From: a virus
Lineage: Duplodnaviria > Heunggongvirae > Uroviricota > Caudoviricetes
DNA: 8,353 bases
Strand: one strand, 5' to 3'
Virus record (IMG/VR): IMGVR_UViG_2877274432_000004
A program made the translations under genes and the position numbers. Position 1 is the stretch's first letter; each line of letters opens with the position of its first letter. Shown here one piece after another: positions 3,229-8,353 of this stretch. Under the pieces are notes generated by a model. It did not search any database and was not told the DNA's origin. It saw only the letters and a list, made by a program, of their open reading frames with translations.

Positions 3229-3412
3229 AAACATGTTGCTCGCCTCTTCTTTCGGGCTGTATGATGCCGGAGTCGTCCACATGGCGACCGGGTTTGACAG
3301 CCTGAATACTACAGCGGACAGCCGCTTACATTCCGATATGCGGTTTTTTTGTGTCCGTAAGCCTACCCATACCCGCATTATGGCGGGGCGTAACGGGGGA
3401 GCCTTTGCGCTC

Positions 3413-3433
3413 GCTGGTTCCTGTAGTGCCAGT
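3413..3433 (+). promoter_or_regulatory. Leader hairpin 2 (same stem GCTGG/CCAGT, different loop) complementary to the SD region of the second small ORF
   Basis: Loop CCTGTAGTG (3420-3428) is the exact reverse complement of CACTACAGG (3496-3504), overlapping SD ACAGGAG of the ORF starting at 3515. Pairing extends to 13 bp with one G-U (3416-3428 versus 3496-3508). Confidence 0.4.
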
Positions 3434-3514
3434 CTGTCAACCCTGTTACGTCTCGCCACCATGTTTGACAGCGTAGTAGCGAGACTCCTTAATTTCACTA
3501 CAGGAGCCTTTCAC

Positions 3515-4066: not shown

Positions 4067-4366
4067 ATGAACATGAAAAAAACTGGCTTAACTGCCAGCG
4101 GCAAACCTCGCCCTGAATTTAAGCGCGGTGATATTTACCGCGACCAGTACGGTGGCACGGTAATGATTAAGGGCGTGGCGGGGCGGTGCGTCAACTACCG
4201 CCGTAAAGGCTACGAATATGATTGCGTGATGCCTGTTTATCAGTTTTCCCGTGATTTTTCTCTGGTGCAGGCGGTACCGCGTAACGTGCCCACCAGCAAC
4301 GTAAAGGCACTGGCAAAAATACAGAAGATGAAAAAGATGATTAACGCATTCAGGGGCAAGAAATGA
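4067..4366 (+). CDS. Hypothetical basic protein (99 aa), coupled to the replication gene
   Basis: SD AAAGGA upstream of ATG 4067. The stop overlaps the start of the downstream replicase (ATGA at 4363-4366). No family recognised. Confidence 0.6.
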   Translation: MNMKKTGLTASGKPRPEFKRGDIYRDQYGGTVMIKGVAGRCVNYRRKGYEYDCVMPVYQFSRDFSLVQAVPRNVPTSNVKALAKIQKMKKMINAFRGKK

Positions 4367-5763
4367 AAAGCGCACCGAACTTAAAAAAACAGCCTTACGA
4401 CAAAATGACCGAGGTCATTATTTTTGCGGGTGGTGATGCCTGGGCACACGCGAAGCAGTGGCAGGAGCAGGAGGGGCGACTTGCTGGCGATAATGTGCCA
4501 CCTGTATGGCTTGGGGAGCAGCAACTTGCAGAACTGACAGACATGAGAATCATCGACGAGGGCCGCTATTGCGTCCGGCTGTACAAAGCAGGCCATATCA
4601 GACCATCAAATATTAATGCCATTGCGCACAAGCTGGCAGCGGCAGGTGTACAGGATGCGAATTATTACCCCGATGGGATGCACAGCCAGAAGCGGGAGAA
4701 CTGGCGCGAATATCTGGAACGGGAGCGCGGTAATAAGCCAGTGGAAGAAAAAAGCCACCAGCGAAACACCACGCTACCGATGAGCGTTGGATCTGCCGGA
4801 TATGACACGCAACTGGATTACGTGGTTAAGGGGATTATTCCGGCGGTATCGCTGTGCAGCATATACGGGGCGAGCGGTTCCTATAAATCGTTCCTTGCGG
4901 GTTCGTGGGCGTGTCACGTTTCCACGGGCCGCCAGTGGGGAGGCCGCAGGGTTGCGCATGGTGCGGTTCTCTATGTGGTTGGTGAAGGCGGTATCGGCGT
5001 TCCGCGTCGTGTAAAAGCCTGGGAGGTTGTGCACGGTGAGCAGGTGAAAAATCTGTATCTGGTAAACCGTCCCATCTTTCCTGCCGCCTCGCTTGATGTT
5101 GATGAAATGGTTATCGCTGCCCGCCAGGTGGAACGGGAAACGGGTAAACCGGTTCGAATGATTATTCTGGATACGCTGGCGCGTTGCTTTGGCGGCAATG
5201 ATGAAAATGATTCCCGTGATATGGGGGCGTTTATCCGTGGGTGTGACGAACTGAAACGGCGCACAGGGGCAACGGTGCTGGTGGTTCATCATTCCGGCAA
5301 GGATGAAACAAAGGGGGCGCGTGGTTCCAGTGCATTCCGTGCATCACTGGACGCCGAATACCGGATACGCAGGGAGGACGCAGGAAGCGAATCGCTGGTT
5401 ATCTCATGTACCAAAATGAAGGACGCGGAGGAACTCAAAGAAGCTGCCTACGATTTGCGGGTAGTTGAGCTTTTTAACGACGCTGACGGGGAGTTAATCA
5501 CGTCTCTGGTGGTGGTGGATGAGCCGCGCCATCCCGTTGAACCGGAGCGCATCGAGGAGGCAGGGAACAAGACGGAAAACCATACCGCGCTATGGGGGTG
5601 CATCCGTTCGCGCACACAGAACGGCGACAGGTGCACGATCCCGCTGTTACGTGATGACATGAAAAAACTGGGGTACGAAATGAAAAACTTCCGGCGCTGG
5701 CTGTACAAGCTGGAAAAAGACAGGGTTATCCGTATCGATGGGGATGATGTAACGCCGCTATAA
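4363..5763 (+). CDS. Replication initiator ATPase / helicase, RecA-fold (RepA / AAA_25-like), with N-terminal domain of unknown function
   Basis: 466-aa ORF. Walker A GASGSYKS (nt ~4868-4891), Walker-B-like MIILDTLARCF (nt ~5155-5187) and VLVVHHSGK typical of RepA/DnaB-like RecA-fold ATPases. An iteron-rich putative ori lies immediately downstream. Confidence 0.8.
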   Translation: MKSAPNLKKQPYDKMTEVIIFAGGDAWAHAKQWQEQEGRLAGDNVPPVWLGEQQLAELTDMRIIDEGRYCVRLYKAGHIRPSNINAIAHKLAAAGVQDANYYPDGMHSQKRENWREYLERERGNKPVEEKSHQRNTTLPMSVGSAGYDTQLDYVVKGIIPAVSLCSIYGASGSYKSFLAGSWACHVSTGRQWGGRRVAHGAVLYVVGEGGIGVPRRVKAWEVVHGEQVKNLYLVNRPIFPAASLDVDEMVIAARQVERETGKPVRMIILDTLARCFGGNDENDSRDMGAFIRGCDELKRRTGATVLVVHHSGKDETKGARGSSAFRASLDAEYRIRREDAGSESLVISCTKMKDAEELKEAAYDLRVVELFNDADGELITSLVVVDEPRHPVEPERIEEAGNKTENHTALWGCIRSRTQNGDRCTIPLLRDDMKKLGYEMKNFRRWLYKLEKDRVIRIDGDDVTPL

Positions 5764-5975
5764 AAGTGAGGTGCAAAAGTGAGGGGTATAGAAGGAGGGC
5801 CAAAATAAGGCCGCCCTCCCTCACTTTCTCACCTGTATATAGGCAAAAAAGTGAGTAGTAAAAAATTACATATAAAACACACACATAAAAATACTAAAAA
5901 TCTCAAGCGAGGAGAGGCAAGGAGAGGCGAGCGATTCTAAAAAGTGAGTAAAAAAAGTGGGTAGTAGTGAGGAAA
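5762..5975. repeat. Putative origin of replication: AAAGTGAG(G/T) iterons in both orientations flanking an AT-rich tract, plus GGAGAGGC direct repeats
   Basis: AAAAGTGAGG at 5762 and 5775. Inverted copy inside CCCTCCCTCACTTTCTCACC (5815-5834). AAAAAGTGAGTAG at 5845. AAAGTGAGTA / AAAGTGGGTAG / TAGTGAGG at 5941-5971. AT-rich tract around 5860-5905. GGAGAGGC at 5911, 5921 and 6012. Inverted repeat GGAGGGC ... GCCCTCC at 5794-5819. Confidence 0.5.
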
Positions 5976-6025: not shown

Positions 6026-6436
6026 ATGACAGCACAGATAGCAGCTTACGGGCGGCTGGTAGACGACCCGCAGGTAAAACAGACCAGCAAGGGAACACCG
6101 ATGACGCTGGCGCGTATGACGGTATCGCTGCCATGCAGTCAGGCGCAGGACGGGCAGGCGACGTTATGGCTGTCGGTCCTGGCATTTGGCAAACAAGCCG
6201 ACCAACTGGCAGGACATGAGAAAGGCAACGTAATCAGTGTATCCGGTGTGATGCAGGTAAGCCAGTGGACCGGACAGAACGGGGAAACGCGGCAGGGTTA
6301 TCAGGTCATTGCAGACAGCGTAATCAGTGCGAAAACGGCGCGACCAGGTGGCAACAGACGCAGGACCACAGGCACACAGGGTAATCAGCCACCAGCGGGA
6401 GGCGATGACCCTTATGGTGATGATATTCCGTTCTGA
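6026..6436 (+). CDS. ssb: Single-stranded DNA-binding protein (SSB) with acidic C-terminal DDIPF tail
   Basis: 136-aa ORF from ATG 6026 (SD AGGAGAGG, 7-nt spacer). OB-fold-like pattern (GRLVDDPQVK ... W ... AFGK) and a C-terminal ...DDPYGDDIPF matching the conserved SSB protein-interaction tail. The ORF-track start at 5957 is probably too early. Confidence 0.8.
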   Translation: MTAQIAAYGRLVDDPQVKQTSKGTPMTLARMTVSLPCSQAQDGQATLWLSVLAFGKQADQLAGHEKGNVISVSGVMQVSQWTGQNGETRQGYQVIADSVISAKTARPGGNRRRTTGTQGNQPPAGGDDPYGDDIPF

Positions 6437-6446
6437 GGGGAGAACG

Positions 6447-6719
6447 ATGGTACATGACCGCATAGTGGAAGAACTGGAGTCGAAAGGCTTTTACCGGAGA
6501 GCGGCGGCGCGATGGGCCGAAGTTATGATGCTGGTGGAGACAGACAGGGAACGCGAACGGGTGGCAATGCGCAGGGCAGAGTGTTACGGGAAGGCACAGA
6601 GGCCACCGGAGCCGCCAGAGGAGAACTACGCAGACCTGAGGAAAGCAGTAAACCGCACTTACGCAGAAATGGGGATAGGAGGGAGATGTAAAAAAATCTG
6701 GCGTAGCTACCAGAAGTAA
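6447..6719 (+). CDS. PerC-like small transcriptional regulator (tentative)
   Basis: 90-aa ORF from ATG 6447 (SD GAGGGGA), starting 11 nt after the ssb stop. The motif FYRRAAARWAEVM resembles PerC-family proteins as I recall them. The ORF-track start at 6327 overlaps ssb and is unlikely. Confidence 0.55.
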   Translation: MVHDRIVEELESKGFYRRAAARWAEVMMLVETDRERERVAMRRAECYGKAQRPPEPPEENYADLRKAVNRTYAEMGIGGRCKKIWRSYQK

Positions 6720-6832
6720 GCACAGGACAGGAACAGTCAGCCGGATTTTCTGATTGTGTGCGTGTATATCGTTTTATCGCGACGTTAAATTAAACTGGTA
6801 TGACCAGATACACCAACATAAGAGGCTACCGG

Positions 6833-7240
6833 ATGAACGATCAAAACCATCACGCACCAAAAGACATTGAGCGGATTAAATTCATAAATGACATAGACGG
6901 CGGAGACAAACCCGGCGAGGCATGGTGTGATTCGCTTGCTGATATCGTGTCTCATTCAGTGGCTGAGCTTACCCGTAATGGCATGGAGCAGTCTGAAGCC
7001 TTCAGAATCGCCAAGCAGGTTGTTGCTGCAATCGCCTTCTATGCTGGTGGGCGAAGTCTTTACCTTCCAACAGGCAGATCACTTTTTGTAGCATTGCGCG
7101 AATACGAGATTTACCACAGGTGGGATAACGGCGAAAAATTACAGGAATTACGCAAAGAGTACGCAATATCAGAAACCCATATTTACGACATCATCCGGCG
7201 ACTAAGAAAGAAGCACGCCAATAAAATCACGCAAGACTAA
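6833..7240 (+). CDS. Mor-family (Mu middle-operon-regulator-like) transcriptional activator
   Basis: 135-aa ORF from ATG 6833 (SD AGAGG, 7-nt spacer); alternative start at 6800. C-terminal HTH-like region LREYEIYHRWDNGEKLQELRKEYAISETHIYDIIRRL is typical of Mor/C-type activators. Confidence 0.7.
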   Translation: MNDQNHHAPKDIERIKFINDIDGGDKPGEAWCDSLADIVSHSVAELTRNGMEQSEAFRIAKQVVAAIAFYAGGRSLYLPTGRSLFVALREYEIYHRWDNGEKLQELRKEYAISETHIYDIIRRLRKKHANKITQD

Positions 7241-7374
7241 CCACAGACACCAGCAGCAACCGTTATATTTGCGCCGCTATCGCAAAAATCCCCTTTCAGG
7301 GCATCCACTGATGCTACAAAACACCAAAACGCATCAGAGAGCGAATCAGGCGCTTTAATGGTGATTTGTTTTTT

Positions 7375-7440
7375 GTGAAAAAAGGTGAAAGAAGCTGATT
7401 TTTGTGAAATTAAGCGAAATCACGTGAAATCAGGTGAAAT
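7375..7440 (+). repeat. Array of six (G)TGAAA(T) direct repeats with roughly 10-bp phasing; candidate protein-binding array (regulatory or packaging)
   Basis: GTGAAA 7375, GGTGAAAG 7384, TGTGAAAT 7403, GCGAAAT 7414, CGTGAAAT 7423, GGTGAAAT 7433. Non-coding: stops in all frames. Confidence 0.5.
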
Positions 7441-7516
7441 AATGATACCCGTTCATCTGGTGCTACCAGACGAAACAGACTTTACCCACGCATAACGCAT
7501 GATTACTATTTTGCCT

Positions 7517-7616
7517 GGCTGTATGGTGTACTCTTAATCGGTAAAGCGGCACCCGCTTGTATAGCTTCCAGAAAGCGGGATGTTTATGTGGGTTCGACCC
7601 CCACCACCAGCAACCA
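7517..7616 (+). other. tRNA-like element, copy 1 (degenerate 5' half; intact T-arm plus acceptor 3' strand)
   Basis: T-stem GTGGG (7588-7592) / CCCAC (7600-7604) with T-loop TTCGACC, followed by CACCAGCA. Shares a ~33-nt block with copy 2. Not a canonical tRNA. Confidence 0.3.
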
Positions 7617-7635
7617 ACAACCTCATTGCTTTTTT

Positions 7636-7717
7636 GCTGGTGTACGCTCAACGGGTAGAGCCGGTGCCAGCCTGTACAGGCTGATCATGTATGCGGGTTC
7701 GACCCCCGCCACCAGCA
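7636..7717 (+). other. tRNA-like element, copy 2: acceptor, D-arm and T-arm are tRNA-like but the anticodon arm is replaced by a perfect 16-nt palindrome
   Basis: Acceptor GCTGGTG (7636-7642) pairs with CACCAGC (7710-7716). D-arm GCTC-AACGGGTA-GAGC. T-arm GCGGG-TTCGACC-CCCGC (7693-7709). Central CAGCCTGTACAGGCTG is a perfect palindrome rather than a 7-nt anticodon loop. No encoded CCA. Confidence 0.35.
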
Positions 7718-7921
7718 CACCAAAACGAGCGCCACATCAACCAGCATTAAAACCGCCCTAAAACCATTTTCAAACTTTCGACAGCGCATACATGAACGCC
7801 ATCGGTTTGCATGTGCACATTGATACCCGTTATCGACGATCAAACAGCAAGGGTATCTTTTTCAAAAAAGGCATACAAAAAGGCATACAAAACGAAAATC
7901 AAAAACACATAATTAATATAA

Positions 7922-8353
7922 ATCAATGGAATAACCAATCAATTCATAGACATCCCGGGTCTGAAATTGCCGCTGTTTGACGGTGGACGGTTGAATGCCA
8001 ATCTCGAAGGCACGCGCGCCGCCAGCAACATGATGATTGAACGTTACAACCAGTCAGTACTGAACGCGGTGCGTGACGTTGCCGTCAACGGCACGCGTCT
8101 GCAAACGCTCAACGACGAGCGAGAAATGCAGGCTGAACACGTGGAAGCAACGCGCTTCACCCAGCGCGCTGCCGAGGCCGCCTATCAGCGCGGCTTAACC
8201 AGCCGCTTACAGGCCACTGAAGCCCGGTTGCCAGTACTTGCCGAAGAGATGTCATTACTGATGCTGGACAGCCGCCGGGTGATCCAAAGCATTCAGTTGA
8301 TGAAATCGCTGGGCGGCGGGTATCAGGCGGCTCCCGTCGTCGAGAAAAAATAA
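7922..8353 (+). pseudogene. 3' fragment of a TolC-family (OMF/NodT-type) outer-membrane efflux protein gene; 5' part absent from this locus, apparently displaced by the island
   Basis: Frame open from 7922 (after TAA at 7919-7921); the ORF track's first start is TTG at 7967. Translation (IDIPGLKLPLFDGGRLNANLEG ... LMKSLGGGYQAAPVVEKK) matches the C-terminal region of outer-membrane efflux factors. Upstream is AT-rich non-coding DNA, so the gene has no N-terminal two-thirds here. Confidence 0.75.

Follow-up and report, generated by a model that had tools for sequence, protein, structure and literature searches.

A helically phased GTGAAA repeat array in a PICI-type satellite island resembles the left end of Sp18-type Mu-like prophages and may be a packaging signal

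The DNA analysed here is a stretch of 8,353 nucleotides, called the window, in which position 1 is the first letter. It is a PICI-type satellite, an island of about 7.95 kb. The island ends near 7952 and interrupts mdtP, the ORF at 7967–8353 being the C-terminal part of MdtP. Near-identical islands in other strains adjoin nfeF, in the region where K-12 has the tRNA gene ileX. The integrase must use more than one site, since the island is in mdtP here and beside nfeF elsewhere. The order of the island genes fits the integration, Bro-immunity-RNA, replication and late zones of the Gram-negative PICIs (bioRxiv 10.1101/2022.07.18.500453). The genes and larger features of the island are as follows.

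1–1266: integrase gene, in which an arm-DNA-binding domain was found
2305–2508: AlpA-like gene
2797–2985 and 3272–3463: isrK and C4 antisense RNA pair, in two tandem copies inside Ash/Icd-like ORFs
4363–5763: DUF4222 and RepA-family helicase
5762–5966: five AAAGTGAG direct repeats (at 5762, 5775, 5847, 5939 and 5952), with an inverted copy at 5819–5827
6190–7725, plus strand: cassette of the 3' part of the SSB gene, PerC, Mor, the repeat array and the tRNA-like genes, with its end at 7725
6447–6719: PerC gene, which follows the SSB gene and lies upstream of the Mor-family gene
6833–7240, plus strand: Mor-family activator gene (alternative start at 6800; Pfam Mor, E = 2.7e-24)
7481–7509, plus strand: candidate sigma-70-like promoter TTTACC-N17-TACTAT, weak, with 8/12 consensus positions
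7519–7613, plus strand: first tRNA-like gene (PGAP tRNA-OTHER in relatives)
7636–7717, plus strand: second tRNA-like gene (Rfam tRNA model, 37.5 bits; PGAP tRNA-Tyr)

The two copies of the C4 RNA score 77.8 and 72.3 bits with Rfam, and for isrK the first copy has a score of 59.2 bits, the second one of 32.3 bits, below the family gathering score. The doubled isrK and C4 pair is a P1/P4-type RNA immunity unit in duplicate. The stop codon of the RepA-family helicase gene is followed immediately by the AAAGTGAG iterons, and it is likely that the repeats at 5762–5966 are the replication origin of the island. At 7865–7888, about 70 bp from the right end of the island, two exact copies of AAAAAGGCATAC stand in tandem. 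These repeats may be integrase arm-type sites, and they may also be the 'doubled motif' of attP regions (bioRxiv 10.1101/2022.07.18.500453). No terminase, capsid, portal or Rpp-like gene was found among the island ORFs searched with Pfam and PHROGs. The sequence-only reading, an earlier annotation made from the letters of the window, had recognised no lambda cosN or P2/P4 cos sequence in it. This observation holds, as the only matches to cosN in the window are chance matches with 3 mismatches and there are none to P2 cos.

The Mor-family gene product is assigned to 'late transcriptional activator' in PHROGs. It is 32% identical to Mu C and 49% identical to the late activator of the Sp18-type prophages, a group of Mu-like prophages named after prophage Sp18 of O157 Sakai, in which the gene for this Mor-family protein lies beside the lysis genes. 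A possible Mor/C box was noted at 7288–7301 (CCCCTTTCAGG; ATCCCCTTTCAGGG) that resembles ACCCCCTTCAGG upstream of the prophage protease gene. It was rejected, the alignment being insignificant against shuffles.

The first tRNA-like gene has an acceptor stem and a T arm, with an aberrant middle. In both of the tRNA-like genes the acceptor stem and T arm are good and the anticodon arm is aberrant, and no tRNA was reported by ARAGORN at either. The number of tRNA-like copies varies, with three units in strain STEC2018-607. The candidate promoter 5' of these genes is below the threshold of the promoter scan and was found by direct reading. In relatives the only change to it is a G/A difference in the spacer.

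Between the Mor-family gene and the candidate promoter lies an array of short direct repeats, which starts 135 bp downstream of the Mor-family gene. Its parts are given below.

7361–7366, plus strand: outlying unit GTGATT, followed by a T-run at 7369–7374 before the first pair of units
7375–7400, plus strand: left half of the array, with GTGAAA at 7375, GTGAAA at 7385 and CTGATT at 7395
7399–7443, plus strand: right half of the array, with a T5 run, GTGAAA at 7404, GCGAAA at 7414, GTGAAA at 7424 and GTGAAA at 7434
7443–7449, plus strand: TGATACC, directly abutting the array

By direct reading there are five exact copies of GTGAAA on the plus strand (7375, 7385, 7404, 7424 and 7434) and one further unit, GCGAAA, at 7414. 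The sequence-only reading had described a phased set of six repeats at a spacing of about 10 bp. This description stands, and a seventh, degenerate unit can be added at 7395, which is CTGATT in the window and GTGATT in 6/6 aligned E. coli relatives. Of the six positions given at that time, four are one base low, starting on the preceding base; they are otherwise right. All seven units are on one strand at 7375–7439, with start-to-start steps of 10, 10, 9, 10, 10 and 10 bp. The trailing T of GTGAAAT is found in just three of the units. The outlying GTGATT is specific to the window, as the relatives have GATGATT in its place. The array looks partly duplicated, because T-runs stand before the first and the fourth units; from its repeat families (D6 and D9) the left half appears to have arisen by duplication of part of the right.

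GTGAAA occurs 10 times in the window when both strands are counted, and 5 of these are inside 65 bp. Taken as G[TC]GAAA, there are six units inside 66 bp. In 3000 first-order Markov simulations of the whole window the maximum was 4 such units, and it was again 4 in 20000 simulations at the local AT-rich composition (37% GC). The clustering is not due to chance. The array was said to lie in a non-coding stretch downstream of a Mor-like gene, and this is borne out on both counts by the Pfam match of that gene and by the finding that no ORF of at least 40 aa overlaps 7241–7462 on either strand. There is no Rfam match at the array, and the promoter and terminator scan of 7100–7960 reported nothing close to it. 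Relative to the candidate promoter the array occupies about -143 to -78.

The segment 6190–7725 recurs at 92–93% identity in islands inserted at yicC. The integrase of the yicC islands is 28% identical and their AlpA 23% identical to those of the present island, and their replicase is of a different type, with toprim plus DUF927. The array therefore travels with PerC and Mor, and not with the integrase, AlpA or the replicase. A sister island in E. coli RM10809-3 (4916–13464 of the locus) has the same backbone of Ash/Icd, DUF4222, RepA-helicase, SSB and PerC. After PerC, a module of capsid, protease, portal, HNH and P27-type TerS genes replaces Mor, the array and the tRNA-like genes. The presence of a late module at this position in RM10809-3 suggests that the slot after PerC holds a module for the exploitation of helpers, and from these comparisons late modules are evidently exchanged between islands.

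Of 5426 complete E. coli genomes only 14 have the array, which occurs at 16 places among them; strain JNEC-KY203 has three copies of the cassette. Every known island copy of the array is at least 91% identical, and for this reason purifying selection on it is not demonstrable from the island copies alone. The relatives of the Mor protein form only four clusters, all from E. coli, and a search of genome contigs for loci related by Mor returned nothing. A scan of viral contigs with the array pattern returned unrelated tandem repeats only, and BLAST of these against the window gave no kinship. The same was true of metagenome contigs, where unrelated tandem repeats only were present among the matches listed and BLAST again gave no kinship. 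A T-arm pattern had no match in the viral contigs. The pattern common to the array and to the phage sequence described below gave four chance hits in 185,579 species-representative genomes. The element seems to be confined to E. coli lineages that are absent from this set, and none of these searches gave a relative from another species.

A connection to the Sp18-type prophages is provided by the second tRNA-like gene, which has an 85% nucleotide match in many E. coli genomes, inside an Sp18-type Mu-like prophage. The element of the prophage (8997–9076 of the examined locus), which is antisense to the late operon, is located between the head morphogenesis and virion morphogenesis genes. These two genes are taken to be the counterparts of those for Mu gpF and gpG. 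The acceptor stem of the prophage homolog differs from that of the island by compensatory changes.

The left end of these prophages, read from outside to inside, begins TGTAACCAGGTGAATCATTTGATACCAACGAGGGTTTTAGTGAAAGGAGGTGAAATCACCTGTAAGATACTGAAATAAAACAGGTGATG. It has the units GTGAAA, GTGAAA, CTGTAA and CTGAAA at positions 40, 50, 60 and 70, and these are like those of the array in unit, 10-bp phasing and orientation. Window positions 7397–7443 match left-end positions 33–79 at 33/47 without gaps, with all four 10-bp units in register, and window positions 7369–7393 match left-end positions 34–58 at 19/25, also without gaps. There is a T-run before the units in both the array and the phage block, and GAAATCAC and GGTGAT are common to the two. 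Random 100-bp segments of E. coli DNA gave a mean of 21.0 matches of 47 (sd 1.95), so that 33/47 is about 6 sd above this null. The gapped local score is 29, against a shuffle mean of 16.9 (sd 2.4), and was reached in 2/2000 shuffles. The left end scores well only in the outside-to-inside direction, with the other orientation and the right end at background level. The similarity is short (47 bp, 70%) and was found after phage ends had been chosen, making these p-values partly post hoc.

Each end of the prophage has three TTTGATAC(C) boxes, in inverted orientation, which are presumed to be transposase sites. Those of the left end are at 18–26, 113–120 and 165–172, and the GTGAAA block sits between the first and second of them, about 35–88 bp from the end. 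The block is present at the left end only; the right end has its three boxes and no GTGAAA block. In the 39-kb prophage as a whole it is the only cluster of GTGAAA-type units at an end, the other three-unit cluster, at about 21.4 kb, being apparently coding. Left-end positions 1–88 are nearly invariant in five heteroimmune prophage variants that have different repressor regions, and positions 89–200 diverge among the five with the exception of the TTTGATAC boxes. This near-invariance next to a variable repressor region suggests that the block is conserved as a functional site would be, independently of immunity type. The TGATACC that abuts the array of the island is the core of the presumed transposase box TTTGATACC of the prophage. 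Boxes of the TTTGATACC type are not enriched across the window (25 found against 23.5 expected), and the abutting sequence may be there by chance or may be a remnant of a captured phage end.

The left end of Mu has a comparable arrangement. Four nGGA(T) units at 33, 43, 53 and 63, exactly 10 bp apart, occupy the spacer between the first two transposase sites (33–67). We know of no earlier mention of this phasing. The pac site of Mu was reportedly mapped to roughly nt 32–58 of the left end, in work by Groenen and van de Putte in 1985 and Harel et al. in 1990. The Mu pac region and the Sp18-type block thus both lie between the first two transposase boxes and both have four units phased at 10 bp, whereas the unit is nGGA(T) in Mu and GTGAAA here, and the block of the island stands alone without transposon ends. 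Packaging of Mu begins with a cut in host DNA just outside the left end and then proceeds by headful (PMC5557969). The Gp27-family protein of the Sp18-type prophages is 57% identical to Mu gp27/D, which is annotated as small terminase. Next to it a gp26-like protein is encoded, whose annotation in Mu is that of a winged HTH. In a comparison on which the pac idea could have failed, Gp27 was identical or 97% identical in two divergent variants that retain the block. Sp18 itself is, according to a published report, an intact prophage that is packaged efficiently (PMC2669165).

Sp18-type left ends are present in 231–233 of the 5426 complete E. coli genomes. They are found in 11 or 12 of the 14 genomes with the array and in about 219 of the 5412 others (about 4%). 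For this co-occurrence Fisher's test gives p = 2e-15, a value that ignores kinship, several of the 14 strains being related STEC isolates. A chimeric query, composed of the island flanks and the phage end so that extra places count as phage ends, located phage ends in 6 of the 8 genomes with helicase-type islands, and the combined set of genomes grew from 231 to just 233. From this rise of only two it follows that two island genomes are without a phage end, those of JNEC-KY179 and STEC17-183. Strains in which both elements are present include JNEC-KY203, strain 48 and OkiPb01685. As an independent line, a second match to the tRNA-like gene is present in 5 of the 6 genomes with yicC-type islands.

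The array could well be a cis-acting packaging signal, in the form of an expanded copy or mimic of the left-end pac region of the Sp18-type Mu-like phages. This is the most favoured of the readings considered and the most economical one, and is taken to be about as likely as not. The possibility of a site for packaging by a helper phage had been raised by the sequence-only reading. It is favoured by the left-end similarity, by the co-occurrence of island and phage and by the two features that they share, the Mor homolog and the tRNA-like element, although the support is indirect. The packaging signal of the island is otherwise unaccounted for, given that neither a terminase, capsid or Rpp-like gene nor a lambda or P2 cos was found in it. 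On these comparisons the helper is likely to be an Sp18-type Mu-like transposable phage. By analogy with Mu, the left-end block of this phage would be its pac site and the small terminase would bind to the units.

A mechanism of the following kind can be proposed. During lytic growth of the phage in a cell that also has the island, the island would excise and replicate from its own origin. [quoted passage not shown] The large terminase would then cut near the array, and island DNA would be packaged by headful, rightward from the array. An 8-kb element in a head with a capacity of 39 kb would need to be in the form of concatemers for headful packaging, and packaging of the island as concatemers is what we infer. 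No capsid-resizing gene is recognisable in the island. The seven units of the array, compared with the four of the phage, would presumably give it an advantage. The array would in this way be part of a portable cassette for the exploitation of helpers, together with the late-activator homolog and the tRNA-like genes. A stronger version of this proposal, put forward only tentatively, is that the three-part cassette of late-activator homolog, seven-unit array and tRNA-like RNAs converts unrelated PICI backbones into satellites of Mu-like phages. The array would here be a 'super-pac' that outcompetes the pac of the helper for terminase, leading to preferential headful packaging of island concatemers.

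The left-end similarity and the co-occurrence also fit with the array being a copy of a left-end element that is not pac, such as a bend or nucleoid-protein site that helps transpososome assembly, or the site of another phage protein. This is a minor possibility, and if the site is that of another phage protein the island may employ it as a decoy or to sense helper activity. A-tracts with a phasing of 10 bp, as in these units, bend DNA, and in Mu the spacer between the first two transposase sites is bent by HU. A transpososome bend would, however, be without purpose in an island that has no transposase and no paired boxes, and in which TTTGATACC-like sites are not enriched. Conservation of the non-A positions of the units (G-T-G), which is as strong as that of the A-tracts, argues against a pure bend, and binding of a repressor is disfavoured because the block is invariant while the repressor region varies. 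There is a small chance that the array is instead an upstream activating region, made of curved DNA, Fis-type sites or both, for the promoter of the tRNA-like genes, as judged by analogy with rrnB P1 and tyrT, which have helically phased A-tracts and Fis sites at a comparable upstream position. The candidate promoter ends about 10 bp before the first tRNA-like gene, and there is no terminator or ORF between it and the array at -143 to -78. Yet the promoter is weak (8/12) and not reported by the scan, and the prophage homolog of the tRNA-like gene has no array upstream. This role also leaves the unit-for-unit match to the phage left end unexplained. The array could have both the activating and the pac role.

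A cooperative binding site for the Mor-family or PerC-family regulator of the island itself had been the other candidate of the sequence-only reading, and it found no support here. The array always accompanies PerC and Mor, and the prophage with the similar block encodes the Mor-family protein that is 49% identical to that of the island. Known Mor/C sites, in Mu, are dyads that overlap the -35 region. The array is composed of seven direct repeats located 78–143 bp upstream of the sole candidate promoter and is not a -35 dyad. Likewise, the late-promoter regions of the prophage (lysis, protease, tail and com/mom, with a possible middle promoter) contain no GTGAAA arrays, and the position of the phage block, downstream of the repressor gene and at the end of the genome, is one at which a late promoter is unexpected. 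It is therefore unlikely that this is what the array does. Phased direct repeats are also typical of replication-origin iterons, integrase arm-type sites and excisionase sites, and the island integrase has the domain for binding arm DNA. These three roles were rejected, the array being retained in islands where the integrase is 28% and AlpA 23% identical and the replicase is unrelated. A site that is unchanged while these proteins are replaced is very unlikely to serve them, to the point of being hardly credible. In addition, a separate AAAGTGAG set already adjoins the helicase gene, against origin iterons, and some 510 bp separate the array from the island end near 7952, against sites of an att region. 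Functionless expansion of a repeat in AT-rich spacer DNA would be in keeping with copies that are all at least 91% identical. This is decidedly unlikely as well, as the units, and their flanks too, match a conserved phage element in register and their clustering is far beyond the composition-matched null.

The carriage of a helper packaging site by a satellite is a known strategy. Like P4 with the P2 cos, the cos-type SaPIs (SaPIbov5) and EcCICFT073 with its cos1 and Rpp, the present island is a satellite without a terminase of its own. In P4, SaPIbov5 and EcCICFT073 the copy or variant of the helper site is in the late region, near the end opposite the integrase gene, as the array is here (PMC6092414, PMC6739421). 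The sites of those satellites are cos sites with a defined cosN, whereas this island has no lambda cosN, P2 cos or Rpp-like gene. Unlike the cos satellites, it has as its presumed helper a transposable, headful Mu-like phage, and it has seven short units where the helper has four. The pac site of P1 has hexamer repeats that are bound cooperatively by the small terminase. The R elements of lambda cosB are short phased repeats to which the small terminase binds cooperatively (PMC6739421). The array differs from both in unit sequence, number and spacing.

The only Mu-dependent island in the literature searched is PmCI172 of Pasteurella multocida, a PICI-type island that is mobilised by a Mu-family myovirus (PMC6092414, PMC6893505). 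Small capsids are made by PmCI172, and a capsid homolog is among its gene products. Structural genes are absent from the present island, which has the Mor homolog, the array and the tRNA-like genes in their place. The packaging signal of PmCI172 does not feature in the discussion in the available text of PMC6092414 and PMC6893505, and the literature searched contains no description of the recognition of islands for packaging by a transposable Mu-type phage. A swappable cassette with a phased-repeat pac mimic directed at a transposable Mu-type phage would be a new form of the known strategy.

If the array is the signal, the packaging specificity of Mu-like phages could be studied on a small DNA element of about 80 bp. 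The array would further indicate what the pac determinant is in the Sp18-type prophages, a group that is common in E. coli strains producing Shiga toxin. Under the 'super-pac' proposal, the array would reveal this determinant for the phage group as phased short repeats between the first two transposase sites, an arrangement that Mu itself has too. If the array is the signal, it would also follow that modules for helper specificity are swapped as cassettes among island backbones. The islands carry PerC-type virulence regulators, and the swapping of cassettes would thus have a bearing on the spread of these regulators.
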